A stretch of DNA of 64,000 nt, taken from assembly GCA_963753345.1 (NCBI GenBank), contig CAVWBU010000027.1:287624-351623 (forward strand), written 5' to 3'. Position numbers and translations under genes: made by a program. Positions 24,049-64,000 of this stretch are shown in pieces. The notes beneath the pieces were generated by a model, which was given only the letters and a program-made list of their open reading frames with translations, ran no database searches and was not told where the DNA came from. Every line of letters begins with the position of its first letter. Position 1 is the stretch's first letter. Source of the stretch: an uncultured Fibrobacterota bacterium. Lineage in GTDB: Bacteria > Fibrobacterota > Chitinivibrionia > Chitinivibrionales > FEN-1185.

Positions 24049-24054
24049 ACGAAA

Positions 24055-24819
24055 TCATTTCTTGATTGCAAGTCCATAGGCGACATTGATGGAGAGCGGA
24101 ACCCCGGAAGGCTCGTTATGCCTTTCTCCATATTCCCTGCACAGTCTTATTATTTCCTGCAGAGAAAGGCGCTTCCCCTCGACCGCGGTGCTGCCCGTCT
24201 CGCTCATGTACTTGAGCGCATCCATGGCAGAGGCAAAGCGGTACTGCTTTGCAAAGGATAAATACGTCCGGCAGTCGAATCCCGATGCGGCCAACAGCGC
24301 CGAAAAATCGTCGCGCGAAGGAAGACGTACCGGAACGGAAAGATTGCGCTCCTGGCGCAGGGAAAATATTTCGGCAAAAGAACCTTGCAGAAATGCGGCG
24401 AATACCAGCGCGCCGCCGGCAGCCAGAATGCGGTGCAATTCCCCCATGCCTTTGGATGGATCCGCCAGCCAGTGTAACACCGAGGCGACCACTGCGCCGC
24501 CGAACACCCCGCTTTTGAACGGCAACCCCTCAATGTCGGACTGAACCGCGCCGGAGCTTCTGCGGCAACGCAGCATTCCGTATGCCAGATCGGTGCGCAT
24601 CAATCTGACAGGAACCTTGTGATCGATAAGCAACCCTGCCATGCCGCCTGCGCCGCAGCCGGCGTCAAGCCAAGGCAGGCTTAGCCAGCCCGCGGTCTTT
24701 ACAAGAGGAACAAGCATTGCAAGGATCTGTTTCTGGATATACGCTTCCTCCTGGTATCCGTTTGCTTTTGCGGAAAATGTCGCGGCAATGCAGCGTTTGG
24801 ACGGAATTTGTACAATCAT
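24055..24819 (-). CDS. bioC: malonyl-ACP O-methyltransferase (class I SAM-MTase)
   Basis: 254 aa. SAM motif I LDAGCGAGG. First gene of the bioC-D-A-F-G array. Confidence 0.8.
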   Translation of the reverse strand: MIVQIPSKRCIAATFSAKANGYQEEAYIQKQILAMLVPLVKTAGWLSLPWLDAGCGAGGMAGLLIDHKVPVRLMRTDLAYGMLRCRRSSGAVQSDIEGLPFKSGVFGGAVVASVLHWLADPSKGMGELHRILAAGGALVFAAFLQGSFAEIFSLRQERNLSVPVRLPSRDDFSALLAASGFDCRTYLSFAKQYRFASAMDALKYMSETGSTAVEGKRLSLQEIIRLCREYGERHNEPSGVPLSINVAYGLAIKK

Positions 24820-42970: not shown

Positions 42971-44405
42971 CTACTTTGTAAAGAGCACGCCGACCTTGCG
43001 GAGGCTCTGCGTGAAGTTGCCCCACGACCGGAAGGAGCGCAGCAGCATCATCCAGAGATAGCCCGGCCTCCGGTAGTACCTGCGGTAAAACGTGGACAGA
43101 GAGCGGTTGATCGCCTCGTTTGACAGATGCGGCAACTCAACGGCCGAATGGTGAACGCTGTCGTGTTTGTCCCAGTCCTCGGTGAGGAGGCAGTTGTTGT
43201 CCTTGAGCAGCTTGTAGTAATCGGTGCCGGGCAGCGGCGTGGGCGCCGACACCTGGGTGAATTCCGCGTTGAGTTCGAACGCAAACCGCACGGATTCCTC
43301 CATGGTCTTCCACGGTGTCCCAGTAAAATCCCAGCATGATGCAGTTGAGCACGTCGAGGCCGTGTTTCTTGGCGATGGCCACTCCCCTGCGGATCTCGTC
43401 CTTGGTGGTGTTCTTTCGCATGTGTTTGAGCACGTCCTCGTTGCCGGACTCAACTCCGTACAGCACCATGCGGCAACCGGACTTTTTGAGCCAGAACGCC
43501 ATTTCCTCCGTCATGAGCTGGGCGCGCGCCTGAACCGAATACAGAACGTTCACCTTCCGCTCCACCATGAGTTTGCATATGTCAATCACACGAGAACGGT
43601 CGATGTTGAACGTGTCGTCGTCGATCCGTATCTCCCGCACGCCGCGGTCGTTCACAAGGTATTCAATCTCGCGCACCACGCGTTCCGGGGACATGGCGCG
43701 GAACTTGTGCCCGTAAATGGTCTGTGGATACGAACAGAAAATGCAGCTGAACGGACACCCGCGCGAGGTGATCATGGTCGCGGCCGGAAACGCCACGAAC
43801 ACGCTCTCGTAGAATTTGCGCAGGTCAAGAAGGTCGTACGCGGGAATGGGAAGCCCGTCGAGGTCGGCTATGGGCTCGATATCGGGGTTCACGCGCACCG
43901 CGCCCGTTTGTTCCTTCCAGGTGAGCCCCTTGACGTTTGCGAGGTCCATGCGGTCCGCGAGCGCTGCCAGAAGTTCACCTACCGAATAGTCCCATTCCTT
44001 GCGCAGGATATAATCGACGCACGCCCGCTTTATCTCGTTCTGGTGGAGCGCGGTCACAAACGGCCCGACCCAGACCACGGCAGCGGCCCCGTCCTTGGCG
44101 TGCCTGCTCACCTCCCAGGCCACAGGCGCGTTGATGTGCTCGACCATGATGACAAGCACATCAGGCTTTCTCTTCGAGATTTCCCGTTTTGTCCCGGCGA
44201 GATCGAGCCGTTGCGTGGGACAGTGCAGGTATTCAACCGCATGGCCCGAATTTCGCAGCACCGCGGCGCATGACAGGTTCTGGTAACTGTAAACCTGCTC
44301 GCCCGTTTCGTTGAGACACGGATGGCGCCTGCCGGCCTTCGATACCTTCGAAGCAACGGTCCAGTCAAGAGTCGGTGGCGGTTCAACAAAGAGGATTTTC
44401 GACAT
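42971..44405 (-). pseudogene. B12-binding-domain radical SAM protein, paralogue 3; single frame break in an A4/T4 run at 43325-43328
   Basis: MSKILFVEPPP…, TSRGCPFSCIFC (CxxxCxxC). Deleting one T restores …IMLGF|TGTPWKTMEESVRFAFELN…, which joins ORFs 43137-44498 and 42971-43453. Confidence 0.8.
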
Positions 44406-44578
44406 TAGGCTTTCTAAGGGAATCAGTCGACAATGACCCAGACATGACCCCGGCGAATTTTCCAATGGCCCGGCACCCATTCGTACCGGTGAAACCACGG
44501 CCGCCGCCGGTAGTCCTTACCTAAAAAAATACATCGCTCCGGACAACTTTTTCAACCGGCTGCAACGGACCTCAGACG

Positions 44579-44645: not shown

Positions 44646-47600
44646 TTACGAAAGGGCAGCCTGTTTCCTCGATTTTGCCTTTGCCCGCCAGTTCTCCCAC
44701 GCGTAGTAGAAGGTCGGCGTAACCACGAGTACGAGCAGCGTATTAAAAAGCAGCCCCCAGAAAATCGCCCAGGCCATGGGCGCCCACCACTGGGTCGTTG
44801 CGGAGCGCGTCACGACTCCCAGGTGAATGAAATCGAGTCCTACACCGGTTGCGATCGGCAGCAGCCCGATCATGGCGGTAATGGCCGTGAGGAGCACAGG
44901 GCGCAAGCGCGTCGCCCCTCCCTCGATAACGGCCTCGCGCAGAGGCCGACCGCTCTTTCTGAGCCTGTTCATGAAATCGATAAGTACGATGCCGTTTTTT
45001 GCCACCACGCCTGCAAGGGCGATGATGCCCACGCCGCTCATGAGGATCGCGAACGTCACGTCTCGGAGGTCAGCCTTGCCTCCGGTGATCAAATTGACAA
45101 ACGCGCTGAATTCATTAGTGATAAGGAGTCCCCAGAAGACACCGCCGAGCGAAAGCAAAATCCCGATCAGGATCAGAAGCGGCTGAAACAGGGAATTGAA
45201 CTGGAACACCATGGTCAGAAACACCAGGCCCATTGCCACGAAGAACGCCTTGATGAGAAAAGCCTGCGATTCGGCCTGCATGCGGTTGCCGCTTCCCGGA
45301 CGGATGGTGTAGCCGAGCGGCGGTCTTACTTTTTTGACCGCAGTCATTGCCAGTTTCTTGGGCCCCCGCTCGTCTTTCTGGCCCGGAGCAAGCTCCGCAG
45401 TGACCAGCACGGTACGCTTCCCGTCGACATGCTTGATGGATAAGATATTGGCGCCCTGGGTGATGGTGGCCACGCTCGTGAGCGGCGCTTCCTTGTTGTC
45501 CTTGGAAATAACGATTTCATTGAGGCCATTGAGGTTTTCCCGAACGGCCGGCCCAAGCCGCACCATGATCTTGTATTCGTCCTTGCCCACGCGGTACTTT
45601 CCCGCTTCGTTTCCGTAGATGGCGCCGCGCACCGCGGAGGCAACATCGAGCGTGGAAAATCCCAGACGTTTTGCCTGTTCCCGGTCGACGTTGACGCGGA
45701 TCTCCGGCCGCGCCGGATCGTAGTCGGTAATAACATTTGTCAATCCAGGCACTTTTTGCACGAGACTTCGTATGCTGTCCGCAAGCATGCTCAGCTGCTG
45801 ATAATCGTCGCCGCTCACCTCAAGTTCCACGGGTTTTCCGGTCGGCGGGCCCATTGCCTGTTTGATGACCTGCAGTTTCCATCCGGGAACCAGTTGGGGA
45901 AGCGTGTCTTCCAGCCAGGTCATGGTTTTGTACGATGACACCTCCCGCTCCTCAAAATCCTTGAACACGATGTCGAGGTACCCCTTGTTGCTTTCAACCT
46001 GGCTGGTCGTCATCCGCGAGGATTTGCCCGAGCCGACGATAGTGCTCACGGTCTTGACCGAAGAAACACTGGCGGGCATGGTCATGGCTATGCGCTCGGG
46101 AGTCCTGATGACGGAGTCGGTGATGGCAATGTCCTGAGATATGGGGCCTTCGATCTGGACAGACGCGACATCCGGCTCGATGACCGGGAAGAACACCACG
46201 CCCGGACCGAATATCATATACATAAAGATGCCGGATATTACAAACGCGATGCAGAAAATGGCAAGAATTATCGGATGGTTGAGTGCACGATGCAGAAGCT
46301 TCCGGTAGAGGTCCTTGAAATGTTCGAACCCGCCTTTGGATCCACCGCCTTCCAAACGGAGCGCTTCCTTATTATTCATCGTGAGCGAAGCAAAGACCGG
46401 ATTGAATATGAACGCGACAAACAGGGAGCCGGACAGTGTGATGCTCACGGTGATGGGCAGGTATTTCAAGAATTCGCCCATGATACCGGGCATGAACAGC
46501 ACCGGCGAAAAAGCCGCAATCGTGGTGAGCGTCGCCGTGAACACCGGCACCATAACTTCCCTGGTGCCGTCGAGTGCGGCCTGGAACCGTGGTTTCCCCA
46601 TACCCAGGTGACGGTAGATGTTTTCCACCACCACGATGCCGTCGTCAACCAGCATGCCGAGGACCATGACAAGCGAGAACAGAACGACCATGTTGAGCGT
46701 GACGCCCATGTAGCTCAGCGCAATGAAACCCATTGCCATGGAAAACGGTATGGCCGTGGAGATGAAAAGCGAGTTGCGCACGCCCAGGAAGAAGCTCAGC
46801 ACCAGGAGCACCAGGATGATGCCCATGAGCAGGTGGTTCTGAAGCTCATCAACCATCTGGCGTATGTTTTTCGACATATCGTAGGTGATTTCGTAATGCG
46901 TGCCGGCCGGCCAGTGCGCCTTGTCTTCATTGAGAATTTGTTTCGCCTCGTCCACGATGCGCACGATGTCTTCGCCGGTTCGTTTCGCCACAGTCAACGT
47001 AAGAGACGGCTTGCCGTTGGTGCGCGAGATGGACTGTCGGTCCCGCGTGTAGGTGAACGCGACATGCGCCACGTCTCTCACGCGGATCATCTTGTTGTTC
47101 ACTGAGCGCACGATCAGGTCGTTGAACTGAGACGGGGCGGTAAGTTCGCCGGTGACCCTTATGGAAAACCGGAAGCCGGAGGCGATCATGGTGCCGCCCG
47201 GCACATTTACATGCTGGGTTGAGATGGCCTTGGAAATGTCCGATAAAGTCAACCCGTACTGCTCCAGAAGCGCAGGATCAACGTCGACGGCGATTTCCTT
47301 GTCCCGTTTGCCCTGGACCTTGGCCTCCAAAACGCCCGGAATCTTCGCCATGCGGTCCTTGAGGTTATCGGCGAGCGATTCGAGGCGTTCCAGGTCGTAG
47401 TCGGAATAGAGCGCAATGTTGACAATGGGAATCGAGCTGATATTCAATTCCTGGGTGATAGGTTCTTCGGCGTCAGGCGGCAGATCACCTTTGGCCTGGT
47501 CCACCTTGTCCTTGACGCGACGCAACGCATCCTCCACCTTGACCGTCGGCTGAAATTCCAGGAAGATGTTGGAGAAGCCCTCATTGCTCGAACTCGTCAT

Positions 47601-47831
47601 TTCCTTGACGCCGTCGACGCCGTCGAGCTTGTCCTCGATTTTCTGCGTGATGAGGTTTTCCACCTCGGGCGGGTTGGCGCCCGCGTATACGGTGGTGACG
47701 TAGATGTACGGTATCTTGATTTCGGGGAACGATTCCCGCTGCATGCCCGCAAAGCTCATCAGGCCGACGACGAAAAGGAGCACGGCCAGGACGATAACCG
47801 ATACGGGGTTCTTAAGTGCAAATTTGGTCAT
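44646..47831 (-). CDS. RND-family efflux pump inner-membrane subunit (AcrB/HAE-type)
   Basis: 1061 aa, intact. 12-TM, two-large-loop organisation with typical N-terminus MTKFALKNPVSVIVLAVLLFVVG. Confidence 0.93.
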   Translation of the reverse strand: MTKFALKNPVSVIVLAVLLFVVGLMSFAGMQRESFPEIKIPYIYVTTVYAGANPPEVENLITQKIEDKLDGVDGVKEMTSSSNEGFSNIFLEFQPTVKVEDALRRVKDKVDQAKGDLPPDAEEPITQELNISSIPIVNIALYSDYDLERLESLADNLKDRMAKIPGVLEAKVQGKRDKEIAVDVDPALLEQYGLTLSDISKAISTQHVNVPGGTMIASGFRFSIRVTGELTAPSQFNDLIVRSVNNKMIRVRDVAHVAFTYTRDRQSISRTNGKPSLTLTVAKRTGEDIVRIVDEAKQILNEDKAHWPAGTHYEITYDMSKNIRQMVDELQNHLLMGIILVLLVLSFFLGVRNSLFISTAIPFSMAMGFIALSYMGVTLNMVVLFSLVMVLGMLVDDGIVVVENIYRHLGMGKPRFQAALDGTREVMVPVFTATLTTIAAFSPVLFMPGIMGEFLKYLPITVSITLSGSLFVAFIFNPVFASLTMNNKEALRLEGGGSKGGFEHFKDLYRKLLHRALNHPIILAIFCIAFVISGIFMYMIFGPGVVFFPVIEPDVASVQIEGPISQDIAITDSVIRTPERIAMTMPASVSSVKTVSTIVGSGKSSRMTTSQVESNKGYLDIVFKDFEEREVSSYKTMTWLEDTLPQLVPGWKLQVIKQAMGPPTGKPVELEVSGDDYQQLSMLADSIRSLVQKVPGLTNVITDYDPARPEIRVNVDREQAKRLGFSTLDVASAVRGAIYGNEAGKYRVGKDEYKIMVRLGPAVRENLNGLNEIVISKDNKEAPLTSVATITQGANILSIKHVDGKRTVLVTAELAPGQKDERGPKKLAMTAVKKVRPPLGYTIRPGSGNRMQAESQAFLIKAFFVAMGLVFLTMVFQFNSLFQPLLILIGILLSLGGVFWGLLITNEFSAFVNLITGGKADLRDVTFAILMSGVGIIALAGVVAKNGIVLIDFMNRLRKSGRPLREAVIEGGATRLRPVLLTAITAMIGLLPIATGVGLDFIHLGVVTRSATTQWWAPMAWAIFWGLLFNTLLVLVVTPTFYYAWENWRAKAKSRKQAALS

Positions 47832-47935
47832 TCAATTCTCTCCTGAGACATGCACAACCTAGGTGCATCCTTGAACTGTGTTTCCTTCTCCCTATGGGAG
47901 AGGGGGAAACAGGAATCAATCAGCTATGGAAATAT

Positions 47936-49006
47936 CTAGAACAGAACTTTTGTCCCATCGCTCACCTGGAACGCGCCGGTAACCACGAGCTTGTCGCCCT
48001 GATGGAGACCGTCTTTGATAAGCGAGCTGTCCTCGCTGGTCGCTCCGATCGAAACCTTCCTCTGCCGGGCGACGCCGTTTTCGACGACCATGGCGCAAAC
48101 GCCGTTCTGCAAACGCACCAGCGCCGAAGACGGGACCACAACGGCATGGTCATACCGGTGCCGAAGAATGCGTGCGCGGCCCACCATGCCCGGCTCAAGC
48201 ATTCCGTCATGATTGGTCAACACGATGCGCGCCGTTACGGTACGCGACTTGGCGTCCACGGCGCGGTCCAGGCTCATGAGGCGGCCGTCAAAGGCAATGT
48301 CGGGATGCTGGAGTAGCCGGAATTCCGCTTTCATCCCTTCTTGGTACCCGAAGGCCTCGGCTTCCGGTATCGCGATGTCCGCCTCGAGCCGGTCAATGCG
48401 GGATACACGGATCGTGGAAACGCCGGGAGCGACTGTCTGGAATCCGTCAATGGATCGGCTCACAAGCATTCCGTCGAAGGGTGCCTGGCACTGGCAGTCC
48501 TCCCACGCGCGCTTTGCTGTGGCCAGCAGCATCTTTGCATTCTGGTAGGCAAGATTGGCAGCGTCCACGGCCGAGCGCCCGAGTGAACCGTTCTGCACAT
48601 TGGCGGTAGCCCGGTCCAGATCGCCCTTCGTGACAGCGACCTGCGCCCTGGCGGCTTCGAGCGCGGAACCGTACTTGTCGCCGTCGATATCACACAACGA
48701 CTCGCCCGCCTTGAACCGGGTGCCGACGGTCCTGATGGAATTAACGCGGCCGCCCTGGGCGGGCGCAACCAGGTTTGCGTCTTCGATGCCGCGCAAATCG
48801 GCCGAGTAGCTGCCCCAGTCTTCAAACGGGCCTTCGTTGACATCCGCAACAACGACTTTGACCACTGCGGAATCGGCGGAATGCCGGGAGTCTGGGCCAT
48901 GCTTTGTCGTGTCTTTCCCGTTGCAACCCATGCTTGCGGCGCATACGATAATGCACAGTGTGCCCGCAGCCGATGTGGTAAGAATCTTCAACGTGCGTGC
49001 AATCAT
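47936..49006 (-). CDS. RND efflux periplasmic adaptor (membrane-fusion protein, HlyD family)
   Basis: Lipobox SMGC. Coiled-coil hairpin and beta-barrel segments. Positioned between the OMF and RND genes. Confidence 0.88.
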   Translation of the reverse strand: MIARTLKILTTSAAGTLCIIVCAASMGCNGKDTTKHGPDSRHSADSAVVKVVVADVNEGPFEDWGSYSADLRGIEDANLVAPAQGGRVNSIRTVGTRFKAGESLCDIDGDKYGSALEAARAQVAVTKGDLDRATANVQNGSLGRSAVDAANLAYQNAKMLLATAKRAWEDCQCQAPFDGMLVSRSIDGFQTVAPGVSTIRVSRIDRLEADIAIPEAEAFGYQEGMKAEFRLLQHPDIAFDGRLMSLDRAVDAKSRTVTARIVLTNHDGMLEPGMVGRARILRHRYDHAVVVPSSALVRLQNGVCAMVVENGVARQRKVSIGATSEDSSLIKDGLHQGDKLVVTGAFQVSDGTKVLF

Positions 49007-49036
49007 AATCCCTCCGGAGTTCTATTACGCAATTGT

Positions 49037-50487
49037 CTACTTGATTTCTATGATTCCTTTGCCCATGGCGACCTGCAGGGCGGCCCGGGAGCGGACCTGG
49101 CGGTACCTTGCGTTGATCACTCCCAGTTCCGCCTGTTTCAGTGTTTCGTCCGACAAGCTGCACATCGGCGAACTGGCCGCTTCCCTGTTTGAAATTGCTG
49201 TTTGTAAGTTCGTAACCGTCCTGAGCCGACGTGAGCATTTCCTTCGAGGAATTCAAGTTACTGTCCGCCGCCGCGCATTCGAGAATGGCGGCACGGACTT
49301 CGATTTCAACCATCTTTTCGCATTGTTGAAACGACGATTTCGAGTTTGTTGGCGTCGCTCATGTACTGAGCGGCCTTTGCGCTGTTGGCGAAACCGTCAA
49401 AGAGCGTCCATTGCGCGCCAACCCCAGAGTCCAACTGGGGCTGCCATTGTTGTTCACAGAGCGACAGATCGGAGTTCATCCTTGTATATCCGGCAGATCC
49501 GGTTGCCGCGATCGTGGGCAGATACATGGACTTTGTAAATCTTTGCCCCGCCCTTGTTGCTTTCCGCAAGAAACTTCATTGCCTTGATGTCGGTGCGATC
49601 CGAAAGGGCGGCCTTAACGGCGTCATCCGGTTGCGGGATCGCTCATGTCTACGATCTGATCGAGCGTCTCAACTGAGTCCAGGGTCACCGTATCGGTAAG
49701 CGGCCGCCCCATCATCGCGTTGAGATTCATCCGCGCTACCTTCGCATCACGAATGGCAATAATGGTCTGTGCAATCTTGATCGGCGACATCCGCCCTGGT
49801 CTTGAGGACTTGCGCCTTGCTTCCAGACCCATTCCGGAAGTTCCGTTCAAGGAAACTGTTCAACTCCTTTTTGCGATCGAATGAGTGGCCCGCGATTTCG
49901 GCCCTCTTCTGGAGCATGACGGTGCCAAAGAATATGTCAAGCGCACCGAGCTGCAAAGTCTGCATATTGCGGGCATAGGAACATTTCGCGGACTTATTAA
50001 AATCATTCGCAACGGTTATGGCTGATCCAACCTTTCCAAAAGTATAAATTGGCTGGCTGAATGAAATGCCGGCGCTATATACATTGGAATTAACCGGGCT
50101 TGATATATCGCTGAAGGATTTCAACATGGGCGCCACGCTTAGCAAAGCCGCCATCATGGCGGAATCCGTGGGGGTGAATGTGCTGGCTTCTTTGGCAAGC
50201 GGCCTGGAAGAACCTGAACTGCCGCCGCCGCCCATGCTGCCGAAAGGAGACCCGTAAGTGTGAACATACGCACCGGTGGCAGAAACATAGGGCAACGCAT
50301 TCGCCCAGTTCTCCCTCACCATCTGATCCGCCTTGATAACCGACTGCTTCATCATCTTCACCGAATCGCTGTTCGTGCAGACTTCCCGTATCACCTGTTC
50401 CAAGCCTAATGTCTGGGAATGCACTTGTATTGAAGCCGCAACCACCATGCCTATCATGAGACTCGGGATCGTCATCTTGCACCGCAT
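49037..50487 (-). pseudogene. TolC-family outer-membrane efflux factor, about 5 frame breaks
   Basis: Collinear fragments in ORFs 49747-50487, 49623-49850, 49306-49569 and 48822-49313, plus a hand-translated tail …LKQAELGVINARYRQVRSRAALQVAMGKGIIEIK* (stop at 49037-49039). Confidence 0.78.
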
Positions 50488-52929: not shown

Positions 52930-55491
52930 GTGCCTTCTTTTTTCTTTTGTAAAGCGTTTGTCCACACTTGCCGCGGCTGCCTGCTGGCAACGACCCTGCT
53001 CGCCCTTGTCGGTGCGTGCAGTTCCACGCGCGCTCATGTTCATGTCCCGGCGTCCGCTCCCCACATCATCACGTATCCCCGCGACAGCGTGCCGATAGTT
53101 CCTTCCGCAGCCGATCTGCAACCTGCGGCCGATTCCGAAGCGGACGACGATTCTTCGGAGACCGTCGACGACGACACGGTCTACCAGAATCCTTCCGATT
53201 GTATCGAGGAAGCAAAATCCTACTGCGACGACAGCGATTTCGCGGCCGCGGACTCGGCCCTCCGGCAGGCAGTGCATGCCGTGGAAGCCATGGACCAGAG
53301 AGGCGACGCGGGTGCGGAACGGCTGCCGTCGTCCAAGTACTTCGACGAAATCGCGATAATTTACAAACAGAAAATGCCCGCATCCTACTCGCTGCCGGAC
53401 GACATTGCCGCGGCCGTGTTTCAGGGACAGCTGATGCGTTCCATCGACTCGATGAGCGCCGGTCCGCTCGACAGCGTCGCCCTTGCCGCAATCGCCTGCC
53501 AGAAGGGTGTGGAATACGACGTTCCGGTGGTATGGAACCAGCGCGTGCAGCGCGCCCTGTCCTTTTACGTCCGCAACCGCGACGTTACCATCGATCACTG
53601 GTTTTCCCGGGCAACGTACTACGTTTCGTTCATGAGAAAGATGTTTGCCGACAGCGGGCTGCCCAAGGATCTCGCCTATCTTCCTCTCATCGAGAGCGGG
53701 TTCAACCCACTCGCCTACTCGTATGCAAACGCATCGGGGATATGGCAGTTTATCGCGTCAACAGGAAAGCTGTACGGCCTCAGAAGAAGCTTCTGGCTCG
53801 ACGAACGCCGCGACCCTGTCCGCTCCACAGAGGCCGCCATCGGCTATCTCAAGAAGCTTTTCGGCGAGTTCGGCAACTGGCACCTCGCTCTTGCCGCCTA
53901 CAACTGCGGCGAAAACGGCGTTTCGCACAGCATCGCGCGCCACGGGACCAACGACTACTGGCGGCTCAAACGGCTTCCGCGGCAAACCAAGAACTACGTT
54001 CCCTGCTATCTTGCCGCCTTGACAATCGCAAAAAACCCGAAGTGCTTCGGCGTATCGATCAACGCCGCCGACACGCTTTCCCTCGACACGGTCCATGTGA
54101 AGGAGTCCATAAGCCTGAACGACATTGCCGACGGCCTTGGGGTAAACCGCGACGCGCTTGCCAAAATGAACCCGCACATCCTGCGGTGGTGCACGCCCTG
54201 CGACACGAGCGGCGTGCTCGTGTATCTGCCTGCGGGAAAGAAGAGGGCGTGGAACGCTTTCTATGCAAACCTCCCTGCCGAGAAACGCGTGCAGTGGTAT
54301 CGCTACGAAATAAAGCGGGGCGACGATATCGCCGGTGTGGCCTCCCGATACAGCGTTCCCGCAGATGCGCTCTCCTCCATCAACAGGATCACCGCTCCGA
54401 AATTGACGCCCGGTCATCACCTCTTTATTCCGGTGTCGGCGGTTCCTCTTCCGGCGAATGTTGCCTATTCAGCGCCGCCCGAGTCGGAGATCAAGGCGCT
54501 AGATCTTCCCGATTACGAATATTCCGGCATATCAATCCGTCACCGCGTCCGTCCGGGCGATAATCTCGGCAGGATCGCGCGGCGTTACCATGTGCGCGTC
54601 ACCCAGCTCTGCCGCTGGAACCATGTGACCGGAAAAACCATTCTGCGGCCGGGCCGGATCCTGCTGGTGAGCAGGCCGCTGCCTCCTCCTGTTGCGGAAG
54701 CGCCGCCGCCCGCTGTCGCCGCCGCGGCCCCCGTACACGCTCCCGCGGAAACCGCGGCTGCTCCGGCGTCGCCTGCGCAGACCCCGCTGCCTGTTCTGGA
54801 GGCGCCGAAACCCGCATTGCCTGCCGCGACCGCCGCGGCTCCGGCACAGACGCACGTGGTGGAAATAGGGGAAACGCCGTTCTCGGTTTCGCGCAGGTTC
54901 GACATCCGGCTTGGCGAGCTTGCAGCGCTTAACGGCCTCAACCTGGCGCACCCGATCATCAAGATCGGCCAGACCCTCATTGTCAAGGCTCCGGCCGCCG
55001 CCGTTCCCGTTGCGCACACAGCACCCGTTTCCTCTGCCGTGCCTGCCGCAGCTTCCGGAACCGACGCTGCACAACCCGGCACGGCAAAATCCGACTCCGG
55101 CACTCCGATGGTTGGGCAATCCGAGCATAAAGGTCAGGACAAGATCTATGTGATTGCGAAAGGGGAAGATCTTTTCAGAATTTCGCTCAGGTATTCGGTG
55201 AGCGTCGATTCGCTGATGACCGCCAACCGGATCACCGATGTTCTACGTATTCGCGAGGGCGATACGCTTCGCATTCCGCTGTCTGCGGAAACAGTCGCCA
55301 GGTCTGCTGTCGCGCCGCCGCCGGAGACCGGCGTTATTTACTACAAGGTCAAGGACGGCGACACCCTTGTGCGGATTGCCGCGGAATTCGGCGTTCCGGT
55401 GGACAGTCTTTACAAAGAGAATAAGATGAAATCGGACACCGTTCTTATTCCCGGGAAAGTGATACGGGTGGTGAAAGCCTCGGGAATGTAG
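52930..55491 (+). CDS. lipoprotein lytic murein transglycosylase (MltD-like SLT domain) with five LysM domains
   Basis: GTG start preceded by GGAG. Lipobox LVGAC. SLT core LPLIESGFNP…ASGIWQF…AYNCG. Five LysM repeats and a Pro/Ala-rich linker at about 54650-54850. Confidence 0.9.
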   Translation: MPSFFFCKAFVHTCRGCLLATTLLALVGACSSTRAHVHVPASAPHIITYPRDSVPIVPSAADLQPAADSEADDDSSETVDDDTVYQNPSDCIEEAKSYCDDSDFAAADSALRQAVHAVEAMDQRGDAGAERLPSSKYFDEIAIIYKQKMPASYSLPDDIAAAVFQGQLMRSIDSMSAGPLDSVALAAIACQKGVEYDVPVVWNQRVQRALSFYVRNRDVTIDHWFSRATYYVSFMRKMFADSGLPKDLAYLPLIESGFNPLAYSYANASGIWQFIASTGKLYGLRRSFWLDERRDPVRSTEAAIGYLKKLFGEFGNWHLALAAYNCGENGVSHSIARHGTNDYWRLKRLPRQTKNYVPCYLAALTIAKNPKCFGVSINAADTLSLDTVHVKESISLNDIADGLGVNRDALAKMNPHILRWCTPCDTSGVLVYLPAGKKRAWNAFYANLPAEKRVQWYRYEIKRGDDIAGVASRYSVPADALSSINRITAPKLTPGHHLFIPVSAVPLPANVAYSAPPESEIKALDLPDYEYSGISIRHRVRPGDNLGRIARRYHVRVTQLCRWNHVTGKTILRPGRILLVSRPLPPPVAEAPPPAVAAAAPVHAPAETAAAPASPAQTPLPVLEAPKPALPAATAAAPAQTHVVEIGETPFSVSRRFDIRLGELAALNGLNLAHPIIKIGQTLIVKAPAAAVPVAHTAPVSSAVPAAASGTDAAQPGTAKSDSGTPMVGQSEHKGQDKIYVIAKGEDLFRISLRYSVSVDSLMTANRITDVLRIREGDTLRIPLSAETVARSAVAPPPETGVIYYKVKDGDTLVRIAAEFGVPVDSLYKENKMKSDTVLIPGKVIRVVKASGM

Positions 55492-55527
55492 GGACTCCGG
55501 CCGCTTCCGTTTTCCTTCTGGTTTGTT

Positions 55528-56493
55528 ATGAACAACAAAGATTCCCCTATGACAAACATTGGGGCCGCAGGTCCCGGAGCGCACACGCCTCGCCTGCTTT
55601 TCTTTGCAGGCGTCTTCCTTGCTTGCGCGGTTGTGTGCAATGCCGCGCCGTCGGACTCCGCAGCCGTGCAGGATTCCACCTCCGTCAACCAGCCGCCGGT
55701 GCCATCCGGTTCCGAAGAAACCCAGGAGGATGAATTCCAGGACGACATCGACACCATGGTGGAAACGCAGGAACCTTCGGCGGTGGACACGTTCGCATGG
55801 GACAACTGGAAAATCAATAGCGGCCATTTCGAATCGGAAAACTGGGCCGACACGGCGCGGATCGCTCTTGTCGATTCTTCTGCCGGCCGGTTCTACGTCC
55901 ACCCTTTCAAGAACGTGGTGACCTCCGACTTCGGGCTGCGGCGCTGGCTCTGGCACCAGGGCGTTGACATCCGACTATCGCGGGGCGACACCGTTCGAGC
56001 CGCGTTCGACGGGATCGTGCGCGTCACGAAACGGGACCGGCGCGGTTACGGCAAGGTCGTCGTGATCCGTCATCCCTACGGCCTCGAAACCATATACGGC
56101 CACCTGTCGCGCGAATGCGTGGCTGCCAACGCAAAAGTCAAGGCCGGTGACGTGATAGGTCTTGGCGGCAGCACCGGCAGGTCCACGGGCTGCCATTTAC
56201 ATTTCGAAATGCGGTACTACGGAGAACCGTTCGACCCCAACTGCGCCATTGATTTTACCGCGTTCGCGCTCAAGTCGGACACGCTCGTACTCACTAAGGC
56301 CAATTTTGCCTACCTCGCCGAATTGCGCAAGGCACAGTGGCATACGGTGCGCAAGGGCGACACGCTTGGCCGCATCGCGATGCAATATCATACCACGATT
56401 CACACCCTGTGCGATCTCAACGGCATCACGCCGCATTCCCTGCTTCACATAGGAAGAAAAATTCTCGTGTCGGGAAAACTTCCGGGGGCATGA
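55528..56493 (+). CDS. M23-family metallopeptidase with C-terminal LysM
   Basis: HQGVDI (HxxxD) and GCHLHFE (HxH). C-terminal LysM HTVRKGDTLGRIAMQY. Confidence 0.9.
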   Translation: MNNKDSPMTNIGAAGPGAHTPRLLFFAGVFLACAVVCNAAPSDSAAVQDSTSVNQPPVPSGSEETQEDEFQDDIDTMVETQEPSAVDTFAWDNWKINSGHFESENWADTARIALVDSSAGRFYVHPFKNVVTSDFGLRRWLWHQGVDIRLSRGDTVRAAFDGIVRVTKRDRRGYGKVVVIRHPYGLETIYGHLSRECVAANAKVKAGDVIGLGGSTGRSTGCHLHFEMRYYGEPFDPNCAIDFTAFALKSDTLVLTKANFAYLAELRKAQWHTVRKGDTLGRIAMQYHTTIHTLCDLNGITPHSLLHIGRKILVSGKLPGA

Positions 56494-56631: not shown

Positions 56632-59093
56632 ATGAAAGAATCGGCTGCGGCCGTGCGTCATCGTCGGCGTTGTAATTGCTTCCGTCAATGTTGCCGTCGC
56701 TCAGTCCGGAGGTTTGTCGGAGCGCTCGCTTAAGGTCGCAGAAATCAACCGCCGCATTGACGAACAGGCTTCCAGAAACCGCGCAATCGCCGCGGAGATA
56801 GCCAAACTGCGTTCGGACAGCGCCGCGGCGGATGCCCGCGCCGCCGCAAGAATCGATTCACTCTCGTTGCTTATAACCGGTCTCAACGCGCGGGCCGCGC
56901 GCACCAACGCCATGCCTCGCGTCGCTCCGCCAGCAATCGGCATCATTTACGTCGGCCAAAAACACCCGCGACGCCGAGCGCATGGCGGCCTCCGACAGCA
57001 TGCGCAAGGCAATTGCCGCGTTTGAACCGTCCATTGCCGCCTGGAAAGATTCGGTGGAATCGGCAAAAAGCGGCCTTGAACTCGCCCGCACCGACAGCGC
57101 CGACATCGCCAAGCGGCTTTCCGCCGAATCCGCGCGCATCAGCGACACGACCGCCGCAAAGGAAAAATCGTCAACGGCGCTCTTGGCCAAGGTGGACAGC
57201 ATCGCCGCTTCCATCAGAAAATGTGCCGCCGACAGCGCGGCAGCGGCCATGGTGAACTCAGATTCCATCGCGGCTGCCCGGAAAAGGCTTGCCGACCTCC
57301 GCGTGTACATCGCGGCAAGGGATTCGGCCGTGAAAAGCACGACCGAAGAACTCAACAATTCAAAGCGCGACAGCCTTGCGGCCCAGACGGAGAGCGCCAG
57401 GGAAACGCTGAAACGCGAGCGATCCACAAAGACCCTTGATTCGCTCGTTCCCGTGCTGCAGAACGAGAAGGACAGGTTCCTGCGTATCAGGGAATCGCTG
57501 CAGCTGGACAGCGCGATCGAATCGCTCACGGCCCAGCTCGGCGATTTTCTTAACAAATCGTACGAAGTGCGCAGCGCCGCAACCGGAGAAAAGGCCGAGA
57601 AGGCGCAGCGGCTCGACATTGACAAAGGCAAGCTTGAAGACATGCTGCGCGACGAGGCGTTCGCCGCAGCGGCCGCGAAGATTCCGGGCGCAACGTGGCG
57701 CGACCGCAACGCGCGGGTCGGAACGCTGATCACCGCAACACAGAAGTCTCTCGATTCGGCATCCGCCGAACGCGAAAGAATCGTGCGGGAAGGCATCCTG
57801 AATGGAAAACAGCAGGCCCAGATAAACGCGAATTTTTCCAAGGAGAGCAAACGGCTCGGCGACAGGCTCGCAGCCGCGTGGAAGGACTTGATTAACGCAA
57901 AACCTCGTGTCGCGAAGCTGGAGCAGGACACTGCCGGCGCCATGCGCCGTTTCGAAGCTTTTCAGGACTCCTTCCGGAAAATGCATGCCGCCCTGCTCGC
58001 CGATTCGGTCGCAGCATCGCTGGCTGCAGGCGCCATGCGCCGGTCGTGCGACGCGCTCAAGGCCGCGGGCGCCCAGAGAGAAAACGCGCGCAGGAAGGAA
58101 ATGGCCAGCGCGTCGCTTGCCATTGCGCAGGCCGCCGCTATTCTTCAGAGGGTGCAGGCGTCGCTGAACGATGTGCTTGCGCGCCACCAGGCGGCTCGCA
58201 ACGACAGCGTCCGGATTTACAAGGAAAAAAGCGTTTTCGTCTCCCAGGCCGAGACCGTTGCAGGCGGAAAGCAGGCGGAATTGCGCGGGCTTCAGGACGC
58301 GGTGGATTCGATCGAATCGGCAATAACCGCGGCTCGCGCCGACAGTGCCGCTGCTCTGCGTGACAAACGGGAAGAGGAATCCGCATCCGCCGCCGCAATC
58401 GCCCAGCGCGTTTCCGAAGCGCACAAGGGGGAACTCGCCGTAAAGGATCTGGAACACGAACGGGAAATTGCCGCCACGCCGCCTGCCGCGCCTGCTCCCC
58501 CACCCCCAGCCGCTGCGCCTGCGGTGCCGCAGCCTGTCCCGTCTCCTCAGGGTCAGCAAACCATGAACACGCAGCCGAAGCAATCCGCATCCCAGGAGGT
58601 CGCGCAACGTCAACTTCTCCTCCTGTACGATATGGTTGAAAAAGGAAAAAACGACGCGGCACGCAAGTCCTTTGCCGCAAACCGCAAGCTGCTGGAAAAG
58701 AATCTTGAACCGGAGGCTTTCCAGGCCATCCAGTCAACAATCGAAAGCCTCGAAACTGCACAGCCGCCGGCCCCGGAAAAAACCGCGCCTGCCATGGTAG
58801 CCCCCACGCCACCGCCGCAGCCCCAGCCGGCGCCCGTCGTGTCAACGCCTGTTGCTCCCGTGCCCGACGCGGAGCACAAACCCGCCACGGTCTTTATTAC
58901 GTCGGTGCCGCCGGTCGCAACGGTCTACATGGACGGGCAGCTCATCGGCAAGACAAGCACCGCGAACCTGAACGTGACTTCGGGAAAACATACTATGCAG
59001 TTTGTAAAGGGCGACAAGACCTGCACGCAGGAAATGACGTTTACGGAAGGACAGAATGCGGCGATGTTCGTGAAATTGCCATGCGGGCAATAA
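56632..59093 (+). pseudogene. secreted ~820-aa Ala-rich coiled-coil protein with C-terminal PEGA domain; two frame breaks near the 5' end
   Basis: ATG at 56632 (MKESAAAV). The signal peptide VIVGVVIASVNVAVAQS is recovered in the next frame (break at about 56655). A second break at about 56905-56915 joins ORF 56714-57025 to ORF 56982-59093. PEGA tail: ITSVPPVATVYMDGQLIGKT. Confidence 0.7.
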
Positions 59094-60452: not shown

Positions 60453-61187
60453 CTACTTTTCAGCCGCGGCAAGTTTCGTTTCGGCGTATTCCCAGTTGAG
60501 CAGGTTGTCGAGCACGGCTTCGACATACTTCTGCCGCTCATTCTGGTAGTCCATGTAATACGCATGTTCCCATACGTCAACGGTGAGCAGGGGAATATAT
60601 CCTTTGAGCAACGGAGAGTCATGATATTCGCACCGGTAGGCCTTTATCGCCTTCCCGTCGAGCACCACCCAGACCCAGCCCACGCCGAGCTGCATGGCTT
60701 CGTCGATGAACTGCTTGCGGAACGCCTGATACGATCCGAACGAGCCGTCGATCATCGAGCCGATCTTCCCCTTCGGCTGCCCGCCCGCCTTCGGCTTGAG
60801 ACTCATCCAGTACCAGTTGTGGTTGTACAGCAGTATCGAGTATTGGAACACCGCTTCCGCAAACCGTATTCCTCCCTGGTTCGCCGCAATAAGCTCCTCG
60901 AGCGTCTGATTTTGAAACTCCGGATGCGCGCCGATCCAGCCCTTCAGCTGGTTGTAGTAACTCATGTGGTGTTTGTTGTAGTGAAGGTCCACCGTACGCG
61001 CCGAAATTGATGGCGCGAGCGCGTCTTGCGCATAAGGCAGCGTCACCATGGAAATCGTTTTCACCGGCGCCGGTTTTGCCGGCTGGGCCGCCGGCGTTTG
61101 CCCGGCGAACAAACTTCCGCCCTGAGAAGCAAGTGCAACGGCTGCCGCGATCTTGACAAAATCTCTTCTGCTCACGTTGTGTTCCAT
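60453..61187 (-). CDS. Fe/Mn superoxide dismutase with twin-arginine (Tat) signal peptide
   Basis: SRRDFVK Tat motif. Metal-ligand contexts HYNKHH and DVWEHAYY. Confidence 0.92.
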   Translation of the reverse strand: MEHNVSRRDFVKIAAAVALASQGGSLFAGQTPAAQPAKPAPVKTISMVTLPYAQDALAPSISARTVDLHYNKHHMSYYNQLKGWIGAHPEFQNQTLEELIAANQGGIRFAEAVFQYSILLYNHNWYWMSLKPKAGGQPKGKIGSMIDGSFGSYQAFRKQFIDEAMQLGVGWVWVVLDGKAIKAYRCEYHDSPLLKGYIPLLTVDVWEHAYYMDYQNERQKYVEAVLDNLLNWEYAETKLAAAEK

Positions 61188-61302: not shown

Positions 61303-63063
61303 ATGAAAATCCTCACCGCATCCACGGCCGGGTTCTGCATGGGCGTGCGCCGCGCGGTGGACCTCGCGCTCGAACAGGCCGCCAAGTCGCCGCAAGGTGT
61401 GCTCACGCTTGGCCCGCTCATCCACAACAATCAGACCGTGGAAATGCTCCGCGAGCGCCGCATCGTCGCCATCGACGAATCGAAACAGGTGCCGCCGGAA
61501 TCGACCATTCTCATCAGCGCGCACGGCACGCCGCCCGCGGTACAGAAATCCTGGGAGCCGCGCGGGCATGTGATCGACGGAACATGCCCGAAAGTAAAGA
61601 CCGTGCACAAGGTGATCGAAAAATACAGAGACCAGGGATTCGCGATCGTCATCGCGGGCGACAAGGGCCATTCCGAAGTGGTGGGCCTGCAAGGATACGC
61701 CGGTCAGGCCGGACACCTGATCTGCTCGTCCGAAGACGTTGGCGGTCTGCCCGAATGCAAGAAGATCTGCCTTGTCTCGCAGACGACATTCGACAGCGAA
61801 ACGTTCGATGAAATCGCCGGCCGCATCCGTACGCGATACGGCGAGCAGGCGGAGGTGGTTGTCAAGAAAACGATCTGCTCGGCGACCGACCGGCGCCAGA
61901 GCGAGACGCGCGAACTCGCCGCAAAGGTGGACGCCATGATCGTGGTCGGCGGAAGAAACAGTGCGAACACAAAAAGGCTCGCGGCCATTGCCGGGGAAAC
62001 GGGTAAGCCCGTGCAGTGGGTGGAGACCGAGCTTGACATCGACTGGGACGCAATTGCCGCCTTGGCAACCGTCGGCATCACCGCGGGCGCCTCTACGCCC
62101 AACTGGATGATTAGCCGCATCACCGAGTACCTTACGTACATGGACAGCACTCGTAAAAAAACGGCTGTGAGTTTTCTGCGCTACCTCATAGACCTGTTTT
62201 CCTCGCTCAACATCTTTGTCGCCGCGGGCGCATCGTGCATGTACTATGCGTCATGCATGCTGCAGAAATCCGCGCCCGGCATTGCCGGCGCCGCGGTCGC
62301 CTTCCTTTATTTTCTCTCCATGTACCTGTGGAACAGCCTGGGAAGCATGGAAATGACCCAGCACCTCGGGATCGGACGATACCGGTTCTACCGCAGCAAC
62401 AAACCGCTGCTGTATTCGCTGGTTGCCGCGTGCATGCTGGTGCTTCTCGGCGTGAGCTTTCTGCAAAGCAAAACTCTTTTCTATCTCATGCTGCTCAGCT
62501 CTCTTGCGGGAAGCGTGTACCACATCACCATCGTACCCGGCCCGCTCAGGCGGCTGTTGCGGTACAGCAGGCTTCGGGACGTGCCCATGTCGCGCGACCT
62601 GTTCGTGGCACTTGCCTGGGCCGTGGTGCTCACGCTCATGCCGCATGCGGCCGCGGAAACCCTCAACCTCACGCCGGCCACCGGCCTCGCGTTCGCGCTC
62701 TTGTTCGTGCTCGCGTTCCTCCGCTCGCTCATGTTTGACTTGCGCGACATAGAGGGAGACAGGATCATGGGCCGCGAAACGCTCGTCACCATCATCGGCG
62801 AAGATTATGCCCGCAAGACGATCATGGCCGCCACGGCCGCCGCGTGCGGACTGTGCGCGGTCTCTCCCCTGCTCATGCCGGAGTCCGCGCGCGGAAGGGT
62901 GTATTACATGTTTCTTTTTCAGATGGTGCCGATACTGTACCTTTACATTTTCACACGGCTCAATCGAGGACAAAAATTCGGCAGATCGGTGTTATTCGCG
63001 ATTTTTGCCGACGTGCCGTTTTTTCTTTCGGGGTTTGCGGCTTGGGCGGCGTCGTTTTTATAA
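61303..63063 (+). CDS. ispH: 4-hydroxy-3-methylbut-2-enyl diphosphate reductase (IspH/LytB) fused to a 9-TM UbiA-fold prenyltransferase-like domain
   Basis: All three IspH cluster Cys contexts are present (GFCMGVRRA, DGTCPKV, TICSAT), plus VGGRNSANT, in residues 1-~285. The C-terminal ~300 aa has 9 hydrophobic helices and FDLRDIEGDRIMGRETL (UbiA motif 2). ATG at 61303. Confidence 0.85.
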   Translation: MKILTASTAGFCMGVRRAVDLALEQAAKSPQGVLTLGPLIHNNQTVEMLRERRIVAIDESKQVPPESTILISAHGTPPAVQKSWEPRGHVIDGTCPKVKTVHKVIEKYRDQGFAIVIAGDKGHSEVVGLQGYAGQAGHLICSSEDVGGLPECKKICLVSQTTFDSETFDEIAGRIRTRYGEQAEVVVKKTICSATDRRQSETRELAAKVDAMIVVGGRNSANTKRLAAIAGETGKPVQWVETELDIDWDAIAALATVGITAGASTPNWMISRITEYLTYMDSTRKKTAVSFLRYLIDLFSSLNIFVAAGASCMYYASCMLQKSAPGIAGAAVAFLYFLSMYLWNSLGSMEMTQHLGIGRYRFYRSNKPLLYSLVAACMLVLLGVSFLQSKTLFYLMLLSSLAGSVYHITIVPGPLRRLLRYSRLRDVPMSRDLFVALAWAVVLTLMPHAAAETLNLTPATGLAFALLFVLAFLRSLMFDLRDIEGDRIMGRETLVTIIGEDYARKTIMAATAAACGLCAVSPLLMPESARGRVYYMFLFQMVPILYLYIFTRLNRGQKFGRSVLFAIFADVPFFLSGFAAWAASFL

Positions 63064-63168: not shown

Positions 63169-63288
63169 CCCTCCGCTACCCCCTCCTGGGTGCACCCCGA
63201 GAGGGAACAGTGGCAAGAATCAAGCAGATGTGTGGGGGCACCCGAGGAGAGCGATGGTATAGGCGCAATAGCGGGATAGGGAGCAAAA

Positions 63289-63789
63289 ATGGAAAAAGTA
63301 AATTTTGCATTCATTGATGGTCAAAACCTGAATCTTGGAATTCAACGCCTTGGTTGGAAACTGGATCTAAAAAGGTTCCGTATATATTTGAAAGAAAAAT
63401 ATGGGATTTCAAAAGCTTACTATTTTATTGGCTATCTCCCTGAAAACCAAAATCTTTATAAATCCCTTCAGGAATTCGGATACGTTTTGATTTTCAAGCC
63501 TACAATGAAAACCCCTGACGGGAAAATCAAAGGGAACTGTGATGCCGAACTTGTTCTTCAGGCTATGATTGATTTTCCACATTATGACAAAGCCGTAATT
63601 GTGACCAGTGACGGAGATTTCAGTTGTTTAGTTGAATATTTCTATAGACAAAACAAACTGGAAGTAATCTTGTCTCCCGGCAGGGAGCACTGCTCAAGCT
63701 TGCTAAGAAAAGCGGGGAGAGAAAAGATTCAATTTTTGGACGATTTGAGGAATAAACTCGAGTTTCTAAAAGAAAAAGCACCGCTATAG
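63289..63789 (+). CDS. NYN-domain (LabA/PIN-like) putative ribonuclease
   Basis: 166 aa. FIDGQNL N-terminal motif and VTSDGDF acidic motif. Markedly more AT-rich than the upstream gene. Confidence 0.8.
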   Translation: MEKVNFAFIDGQNLNLGIQRLGWKLDLKRFRIYLKEKYGISKAYYFIGYLPENQNLYKSLQEFGYVLIFKPTMKTPDGKIKGNCDAELVLQAMIDFPHYDKAVIVTSDGDFSCLVEYFYRQNKLEVILSPGREHCSSLLRKAGREKIQFLDDLRNKLEFLKEKAPL

Positions 63790-63803
63790 GACGAAACCTA
63801 TAG
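63784..63803 (+). terminator. possible terminator hairpin overlapping the NYN stop codon
   Basis: ctatagg/cctatag, a 7-bp stem with a 6-nt loop. A TTTT run follows only after 10 nt. Weak call. Confidence 0.3.
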
Positions 63804-64000
63804 AAGTGCCTTTTCATCGTAATCTTACTTTTAATATACGCCTTTCTTCGCCAAAATTCAAGCTCTTTCATTGCCATTGATGTCCTGAGTCAGCAACAAT
63901 GCACAACAGCCACGTTACGCAAGGCCCTTCGGGCACATGGCCAGCGTTTGAATAAGACGTGTCATGTCGCTTTGCTCCGTCACGTTTTCTAACGCTGGCC

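Follow-up and report, generated by a model that had tools for sequence, protein, structure and literature searches.

The IspH-UbiA fusion gene of a Chitinivibrionales bacterium: family membership, motif conservation and possible function

Which role can a membrane domain of the UbiA fold play when it is joined to IspH and its first Asp-rich motif is degenerate? The question is raised by the gene at positions 61303-63063 (+ strand) of a 64,000-nucleotide stretch of DNA (the whole of which is called the window here) from an uncultured Fibrobacterota bacterium of the order Chitinivibrionales. IspH makes isopentenyl diphosphate (IPP) and dimethylallyl diphosphate (DMAPP) at the exit point of the 2-C-methyl-D-erythritol 4-phosphate (MEP) pathway and is an antibacterial and antiparasitic drug target. 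UbiA enzymes bind Mg-diphosphate with both of their Asp-rich motifs. A previous inspection of the letters alone (the sequence-only reading) described a complete IspH running without a stop into a nine-transmembrane (nine-TM) UbiA-fold domain and took such a fusion to be unfamiliar. The architecture was borne out by Pfam, NCBIfam, AlphaFold2 (AF2) and Foldseek. The claim of novelty fails, since IspH-UbiA fusions were published in 2015 (PMC4746011), are widespread in anaerobes and have both Pfam domains precomputed in public resources. It is nearly certain that the gene is a genuine member of this published family with a host in the Chitinivibrionales (Fibrobacterota), and the window protein is a new, phylogenetically distinct and unusually motif-poor member of it. 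The additions to the 2015 paper are that motif 1 is weak throughout the family, that the membrane domain hardly ever occurs without IspH and that the connector between the two domains has a nearly fixed length.

The fusion gene and its family

The IspH-UbiA fusions were described by Rao, O'Dowd, Li, Wang and Oldfield (Chem Sci 2015) on the basis of 47 sequences, mainly from Desulfobacterales (PMC4746011). The UbiA-like domain, C-terminal to IspH, was assigned to the CDD class PT_UbiA_5 and reported to contain 'two DXXXD repeats' and to have an unknown function; supplying a prenyltransferase with IPP/DMAPP on the spot, localisation at the membrane or sensing were put forward as roles (PMC4746011). 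Within the searchable library, no paper treating IspH-UbiA was found in the literature after 2015, save one passing mention in a 2025 JBC paper. UbiA and IspH are touched on in passing only in the lipocone paper, and in the study by D'Angelo et al. (2022), in which NadA and IspG were tested and IspH was not, Chitinivibrio appears in the table of NadA orthologs only.

The family extends far beyond the 47 sequences of the first report, most of which are from Desulfobacterales. A word-index search with the C-terminal domain of the window protein retrieved 53 relatives (45-61% identity), nearly all on short metagenome contigs; those that are named belong to Chitinispirillaceae, Chitinivibrionales or 'Fibrobacter sp.' metagenome-assembled genomes (MAGs), and for many of the 53 both Pfam domains are already precomputed in public resources. 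When a profile of the same domain was run against 1.84 billion representatives, it gave 2197 matches at E<=1e-3, of which 215 representative clusters reached E<=1e-30. Architectures were counted in the best 150 representatives. Full fusions account for 92 of them and fragments with a piece of IspH for a further 22, and most of the remaining 36 begin in the C-terminal helix of IspH (e.g. VTAGASTPNW...) or partway through the membrane domain. IspH sequence thus precedes the membrane domain in at least 114 of the 150 best clusters, and this breakdown indicates that the membrane domain is practically never free-standing. Two apparent free-standing homologues were rejected: P0038 comes from a locus (L011) with a gap of Ns and IspH just upstream, and P0069 from a 997-bp fragment.

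The named family members belong to Nitrospinota, Nitrospirota, Thermodesulfobacteriota, 'Desulfovibrionales' and Deltaproteobacteria MAGs, Desulfobacteraceae and Ca. Edwardsbacteria. Outside the window's clade, the profile of the membrane domain had matches down to E=1e-64, which are mostly fusions and not free-standing UbiA families; fusions of the Thermodesulfobacteriota type were matched at E of about 1e-55. Every fusion examined is annotated as plain IspH in the databases, so that public annotation hides the fusion architecture.

The gene in the window comprises 586 codons and a TAA stop (ATG..TAA), and both its homologues and the alignment with E. coli IspH begin at the same ATG. The mechanical list of open reading frames puts an upstream start at TTG 61153; the alignment with the E. 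coli and Aquifex IspHs begins at the ATG (Met1). [quoted passage not shown] The connector (residues 278-303; 62134-62211, + strand) consists, according to the secondary structure in the AF2 model, of the end of the last IspH helix, a break of three residues and a helix (residues 288-301) that leads into TM1.

A lost stop codon or a frameshift that merged two adjacent genes, the concern raised in the sequence-only reading itself, has practically no chance of being the origin of the fusion. The junction holds in an independent Chitinivibrionales MAG (L001), which reads through ...ITEYLTYMDSTRKKTAVSFL... in one frame (94.5% amino acid identity over the 381 residues covered), and in the 92 full-length fusion representatives, which share no more than 50% mutual identity and come from many samples and assemblers. 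In addition, the length of the connector is constant: 47 aa separate GAS[T]P from Gly309 of TM1 in 68 of these 92 fusions (range 43-50). As this spacing is held even though the other fusions are only about 43% (IspH) and 31% (membrane domain) identical to the window protein, the connector is fixed and not a floppy tether. In a comparison with L001, dN/dS was 0.13 in the IspH part and 0.07 in the membrane domain, the latter value covering its first 96 codons and a small sample of differences (3 non-synonymous, 12 synonymous); these values show purifying selection. An artefact was thus ruled out by the frame in L001, the 92 representatives and the constant connector, and no support for it was found, the two split-looking loci being explained otherwise. 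In L011 (1612-3517), a scaffold gap (a run of Ns) lies right at the junction between the ispH and ubiA-like parts, and the locus in L003 (8977-10753), on a long-read contig, is frameshifted. Gene callers give the halves of L011 and L003 as individual proteins (P0038, P0035 and P0319), a possible trap for surveys of architecture.

The IspH half is complete. PF02401 (LYTB) matched residues 3-277 with E=4e-85 and was covered from profile position 1 to 266 of 267, TIGR00216 (ispH) scored 276 bits against a cut-off of 187.85, and the structure 3dnf was matched with E=1.4e-54. The NCBIfam model of IspH-RPS1 (NF000907) matched the IspH part alone. The catalytic residues were mapped on E. coli IspH, using the three Cys ligands of the [4Fe-4S] cluster together with H41, H74, H124, E126, T167, S225, N227 and S269, and all of them are present in the window protein (C12, H41, H74, C95, H123, E125, T161/T162, C192, S220, N222 and S264). 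The Fe-S ligands are encoded at 61336-61338 (Cys12, aligned to E. coli C12), 61585-61587 (Cys95, aligned to C96) and 61876-61878 (Cys192, aligned to C197), all on the + strand. Among the 93 full-length fusion sequences (the window protein and the 92 representatives), the catalytic residues are kept in 93/93, save for alignment gaps at C12 in 13 of them, which are probably miscalled N-terminal starts. The position of E. coli S226 is Ala in the window protein and in 66 of the 93 sequences, and Gly in Aquifex IspH.

No second ispH was detected by tblastn within the 64-kb window. In a neighbour-joining (NJ) tree, built from distances only, the IspH domain found in the window's clade clusters with stand-alone IspHs from other Fibrobacterota, among them P0209 and P0221, with 96.5% bootstrap and not with the IspH domains of other fusions, and fused and stand-alone IspHs are interleaved elsewhere in the tree as well. 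This grouping and the interleaving suggest that the fused IspH is the ordinary one of its lineage and that gain or loss of the membrane domain happened more than once. The nearest stand-alone relatives of the window's IspH domain (53% and 48% identity) are found in L009 (1-6257), from a metagenome assembly, and L010 (1266-6204), labelled as a Fibrobacterota MAG. Both lie in a conserved ackA - LptD_2 - (radical SAM) - ispH - HIT synteny.

The membrane domain and its conserved residues

The nine hydrophobic helices and the UbiA fold noticed in the sequence-only reading were found again by several methods. PF01040 (UbiA) matched residues 373-558 with E=2e-10 and 40.7 bits, which is above the Pfam gathering cut-off of 34.2. 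The AF2 models built on family alignments reached a pLDDT of 88.2 and a pTM of 0.82 for the full-length protein and 85.8 and 0.85, respectively, for the C-terminal domain. They contain nine membrane-length helices and two short cytoplasmic cap helices or segments, after TM2 and TM6, as in the UbiA fold. The best Foldseek matches in the PDB were ApUbiA (4od4; TM score 0.65/0.72, E=3.5e-5), AfUbiA (4tq3/4tq4), digeranylgeranylglyceryl phosphate (DGGGP) synthase (7bpu/6m31) and UBIAD1 (8djk), with identities of 12-16% to these solved UbiA structures. The NCBIfam matches on the UbiA side (archaeal-type prenyltransferase and DGGGP synthase (DGGGPS) models) scored 15-34 bits against cut-offs of 238-522, and the membrane domain therefore falls into no curated subfamily. 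The family profile aligns to solved UbiA enzymes over motif 2 alone (chlorophyll synthase, E=0.002; DGGGPS, E=0.3).

The second Asp-rich motif is intact, as had been read in the TM6-7 loop. Together with the cap helix it extends over F478-D479-L-R-D482-I-E-G-D486-R-I-M-G490-R-E492-T493-L (62734-62784, + strand) and could be aligned to motif 2 of chlorophyll synthase and DGGGPS. Residues 478-494, FDLRDIEGDRIMGRETL (F478-DLRDIEGDRIMGRETL), lie at the end of TM6 and include D479xxD482xxxD486. The motif is essentially invariant across the approximately 57 sequences of the window's clade, with isolated single substitutions.

The canonical first motif NDxxDxxxD is not present in the window protein. 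Its remnant, M340-Y-L-W-N344-S-L-G-S348-M-E350-M-T352-Q-H354 (62320-62364, + strand), is located at the cytoplasmic end of TM2, and the sequence WNSLGSMEM that was noticed here does stand in place of NDxxDxxxD: in alignments with the canonical UbiA proteins P0052 and P0053, WNSLGSMEMT occupies the place of the motif, and NDLADIEEDAIN of P0053 aligns on NDFYDRDIDAIN of the solved chlorophyll synthase. According to these alignments, the Asn is kept (N344, the only survivor) and the three Asp are replaced by S345, S348 and T352. In the window's clade, the motif reads SMYLWNSLxSxExTxH, without any Asp, and the Asn (100%), S348 (88%), E350 (85%) and T352 (85%) are conserved.

Outside this clade, motif statistics were obtained from 139 family representatives (P0054-P0199 range). 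The Asn is present in 91% of them, followed by R, H, N or Q at N+1; N+4, which corresponds to D72 of AfUbiA, is D or E in 65% and N+8 is Asp in 16%. Most of the other members thus retain N-x-x-x-D, and the window's clade represents the extreme of a motif 1 that is weak family-wide. Regarding the DxxxD repeats of the first report, motif 2 has D482...D486; the position of the first motif lacks DxxxD in the window's clade and has the N+4 acid in 65% of the others.

Other polar residues of the membrane domain are far better conserved. Tyr406 (62518-62520, + strand), kept in 99-100% of the family, corresponds to the near-universal active-site Tyr of UbiA enzymes (Y139 of AfUbiA) and aligns, via P0053, with YS.P of chlorophyll synthase. 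The Y139-type Tyr is 97% conserved across the superfamily and was proposed to stabilise a carbocation (PMC4106721). The TM4-5 loop contains R423-L-R425-D-V-P428-M-S430-R431-D432 (62569-62598, + strand; family consensus [RK]L[KR]DIPxS[KR]D), in which P428, S430 and K/R431 are 94-100% conserved in the family. Position 425 is basic (R in the window protein, K in most members) and aligns with the diphosphate-binding Lys (K146 of AfUbiA), the conserved LK of canonical members. The near-invariant positions are N344 (91%), Y406 (99%), S430 (99%), K/R431 (100%), W439 (99%), R474 (94%), D486 (100%), G490 (99%), E492 (95%) and T493 (91%), and the loop motif [KR]-D-I-P428-x-S430-[KR]431, D479 and D482 are near-invariant across the members as well; the figures for D486, G490 and E492 were obtained from the 139 representatives outside the window's clade. 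S430-K/R431, W439, R474 and E492-T493 are invariant in the fusions and missing from canonical UbiA enzymes.

Possible functions of the fusion

The reading that we favour, to which we would give about an even chance, is that a working IspH sits rigidly on a membrane domain which still binds an isoprenoid diphosphate, and probably transforms it, by means of metal ligands other than the canonical ones. Catalysis by the membrane domain, the identity of the substrate and the cooperation of the two domains are the parts that we infer. The N-terminal domain would work as HMBPP reductase at the cytoplasmic face of the membrane, and the connector of fixed length would hold it rigid on the nine-TM domain, whose substrate cavity would open to the same cytoplasmic side. 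Both Asp motifs of AfUbiA face the cytoplasm (PMC4106721), where IspH must sit, which places the cavity and IspH on the same side. An isoprenoid diphosphate would be bound via Mg2+ on motif 2 (D479, D482 and D486), with N344, Y406, K/R425 and the family-specific S430-K/R431, R474 and E492 as further putative diphosphate ligands, and in the window's clade the Ser/Glu pair (S348, E350) may replace the lost Asp of motif 1. The chemistry would be of the ionisation type, unlike canonical aromatic prenyl transfer, and would act on a compound derived from IPP/DMAPP of local supply by IspH. There is a precedent for an altered motif 1: the active UbiA-type terpene synthases Tps1A/Tps2A, Fma-TC and EriG have NxxxG/AxxxD as motif I and QDxxDxxxD as motif II (PMC9835599). 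Since these enzymes are active without them, the Asp at N+1 and N+4 are dispensable for the ionisation of prenyl diphosphates in the UbiA fold. A missing Asp in motif 1 can thus go together with changed chemistry and does not have to imply an inactive protein. The pattern N-x-x-x-S...E also recalls the metal motif (N,D)Dxx(S,T)xxxE of class I terpene synthases (PMC9835599), this being a resemblance only.

Several results weigh against this proposal. Each of the AfUbiA substitutions N68A, D72A, R22A and K146A abolished binding of geranyl diphosphate (GPP), and the equivalent MenA proteins were dead (PMC4106721); the equivalent of D72, which like N68 is a Mg2+ ligand, is Ser in the window protein. 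The motif-I Asp D100 of Tps1A is essential (PMC9835599), and if D100 is taken as the N+8 Asp of NxxxG/AxxxD, the window protein has Thr at this position. No activity has been reported for any IspH-UbiA protein, and attempts at expression failed (PMC4746011). Direct channelling is not obvious because the C5 products of IspH are not usual donors for UbiA enzymes. A compensating carboxylate in motif 2 was considered, as position 484 is Glu in the window's clade and Gln in 76% of the other members; the Q484 to E change showed no significant association with a missing N+4 acid (Fisher p=0.12, with phylogenetically dependent sequences), and this candidate was dropped. The loci share no conserved gene neighbourhood either: the neighbours differ among the window, L002, L003, L004-L007 and L008, and none of them is isoprenoid-related. 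No link to a particular isoprenoid end-product was found in the window or in the five other loci.

The absence of acceptor-pathway genes at the loci examined would also be expected if the UbiA-fold domain were not catalytic and served as a membrane anchor near membrane-bound electron donors or isoprenoid consumers, or as a sensor of prenyl diphosphates that tunes IspH activity to the isoprenoid status of the membrane. Such a role, though less probable than the favoured reading, is a serious alternative. All three Asp of motif 1 are gone in the window's clade and the family as a whole is poor in them (N+4 acid in 65%, N+8 Asp in 16%), AfUbiA no longer binds GPP once D72 is replaced by Ala (PMC4106721), and an allosteric or positional role would fit the obligate fusion and the fixed connector no less well than a catalytic one. 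UBIAD1 in complex with 3-hydroxy-3-methylglutaryl-coenzyme A (HMG-CoA) reductase (HMGCR; 8djk) is among the fold matches, and localisation and sensing were also raised by Rao et al. (PMC4746011). However, a pure anchor has no need for near-invariant N344, Y406, D486, E492, S430-K431 and R474 across at least five phyla, the putative carbocation-stabilising Tyr is retained, and active UbiA-fold enzymes with a similar loss in motif 1 exist (PMC9835599). A sensor would retain binding residues too, and sequence data therefore cannot tell it from an enzyme. Both alternatives offered by the sequence-only reading, atypical chemistry and tethering of IspH through a dead domain, are thus still live, the 'dead' part being disfavoured by the near-invariant residues of active-site type. 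A 'catalytically dead' membrane domain is disfavoured here on the basis of near-invariant polar residues in at least five phyla, the fixed connector and the precedent of active terpene synthases.

An ordinary, characterised UbiA member (DGGGP synthase, MenA, UbiA or heme O synthase) that is simply fused to IspH is improbable. The best NCBIfam matches, weak as they are, are to archaeal-type prenyltransferase/DGGGPS models, DGGGPS is among the fold matches, and orthologues of G1PDH, GGGPS and DGGGPS were reported in Chitinivibrio and Chitinispirillum (PMC6431249). Against this stand the scores of 15-34 bits under cut-offs of 238-522, the low identity to solved structures, a profile that aligns at motif 2 alone and the lack of the canonical first motif. 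Moreover, the entries KMQ50515.1 (Chitinispirillum) and WP_022637605.1 (Chitinivibrio), compared by annotation, are named DGGGP synthase/UbiA prenyltransferase and not IspH. They are apparently separate genes, so the fused domain is probably not the reported DGGGPS, and its identity with that orthologue was rejected on these names. A separate UbiA/MenA was likewise noted in sulfate reducers by Rao et al. (PMC4746011).

Considering the wide family, the obligate fusion, the fixed connector and a dispensable motif 1 next to other invariant polar residues, we argue for a conserved, IspH-dependent function that is probably other than ordinary prenyl transfer. A more far-reaching version, which we regard as unlikely, is that the domain might be a sensing or terpene-synthase-like module, and not a prenyltransferase, by which at least five anaerobic phyla set the output of the last MEP step according to the isoprenoid status of the membrane. 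UBIAD1 senses geranylgeranyl diphosphate and controls HMG-CoA reductase. If this version were true, IspH-UbiA would be a bacterial in-cis analogue of the UBIAD1-HMGCR control, and the Chitinivibrionales clade would represent the most derived state. Across the family, the first metal-binding motif in its canonical form can be dispensed with, and it is other polar residues that do not vary. The value of the present analysis lies in this sharpened description of the family rather than in the window locus itself.

Genomic surroundings and known systems

A gene for a Fe/Mn superoxide dismutase with a twin-arginine translocation (TAT) signal (60453-61187, - strand) is divergent from the oxygen-sensitive ispH fusion gene and separated from it by 115 bp. 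Right after the fusion gene (approximately 63200-64000) the GC content falls from 0.55-0.62 to 0.40-0.43. This low-GC stretch, inside which a gene for an NYN-domain protein (63289-63789) is located, may be the boundary of foreign or mobile DNA.

The remainder of the window contains three separate genes for B12-binding radical-SAM proteins (5065-6687, + strand; 14551-15858, + strand; 43137-44498, - strand). Proteins with PEGA domains are encoded at 56982-59093 (+ strand) and 40860-42821 (- strand), namely a 703-aa protein that is rich in Ala/Pro and probably forms a coiled coil, and a Ser/Thr kinase-TPR-PEGA protein; another two Ser/Thr kinases are encoded at 530-1633 and 11422-12399 (both - strand). 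At 52930-56493 (+ strand), a lytic transglycosylase (SLT) carrying five LysM repeats precedes an M23 peptidase that also has LysM. A biotin-synthesis-like cluster (class-III aminotransferase, dethiobiotin-synthetase-like AAA_26 protein and methyltransferase) lies at 22026-24819 (- strand), and a resistance-nodulation-division (RND) efflux set (AcrB, HlyD-type and OEP proteins) at 44646-50487 (- strand).

The closest known systems are the IspH-UbiA proteins of Rao et al., which agree with the window protein in the order of domains, the nine-TM C-terminal domain, the length of about 575-590 aa and the anaerobic hosts. Their hosts are mainly Desulfobacterales, whereas the window comes from Fibrobacterota (Chitinivibrionales) and its membrane domain is about 31% identical to the others; two DXXXD repeats were reported for them, in contrast to N-S-x-x-S-x-E-x-T as the first motif of the window's clade. 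The window protein has the nine-TM fold of the canonical UbiA enzymes (AfUbiA 4TQ3, ApUbiA 4OD4, DGGGP synthase, MenA and chlorophyll synthase), with motifs placed where TM2 and TM6 end on the cytoplasmic side, and it shares with these enzymes the conserved Asn, the near-universal Tyr, a Lys/Arg in the TM4-5 loop and DxxDxxxD. Unlike them, the window domain lacks the Asp residues of NDxxDxxxD, including the D72 ligand, has additional invariant residues and is always fused to IspH.

In a comparison of motifs only, the UbiA-type terpene synthases (Fma-TC, EriG and Tps1A/Tps2A) resemble the window protein in the non-acidic N+4 position, the DxxDxxxD of motif II and the Tyr. They differ from it in having Asp and not Thr at N+8 and Gln and not Phe before motif II, and they belong to fungal or actinobacterial secondary metabolism and are not fused to IspH. 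The IspH-RPS1 fusions of Clostridia, Fusobacteria and Thermotogae have, as in the window, a C-terminal extension of IspH and anaerobic hosts (PMC4746011); their partner consists of four to six soluble ribosomal protein S1 (RPS1) RNA-binding repeats, in contrast to a membrane domain. Finally, in the complex of UBIAD1 and HMG-CoA reductase (8DJK), a membrane protein of the UbiA fold is joined to a flux-controlling enzyme of isoprenoid precursor synthesis, as in the window protein. That complex is non-covalent, eukaryotic and part of the mevalonate pathway, and the active site of UBIAD1 is canonical, unlike that of the window domain; the regulatory side of the analogy is established knowledge.

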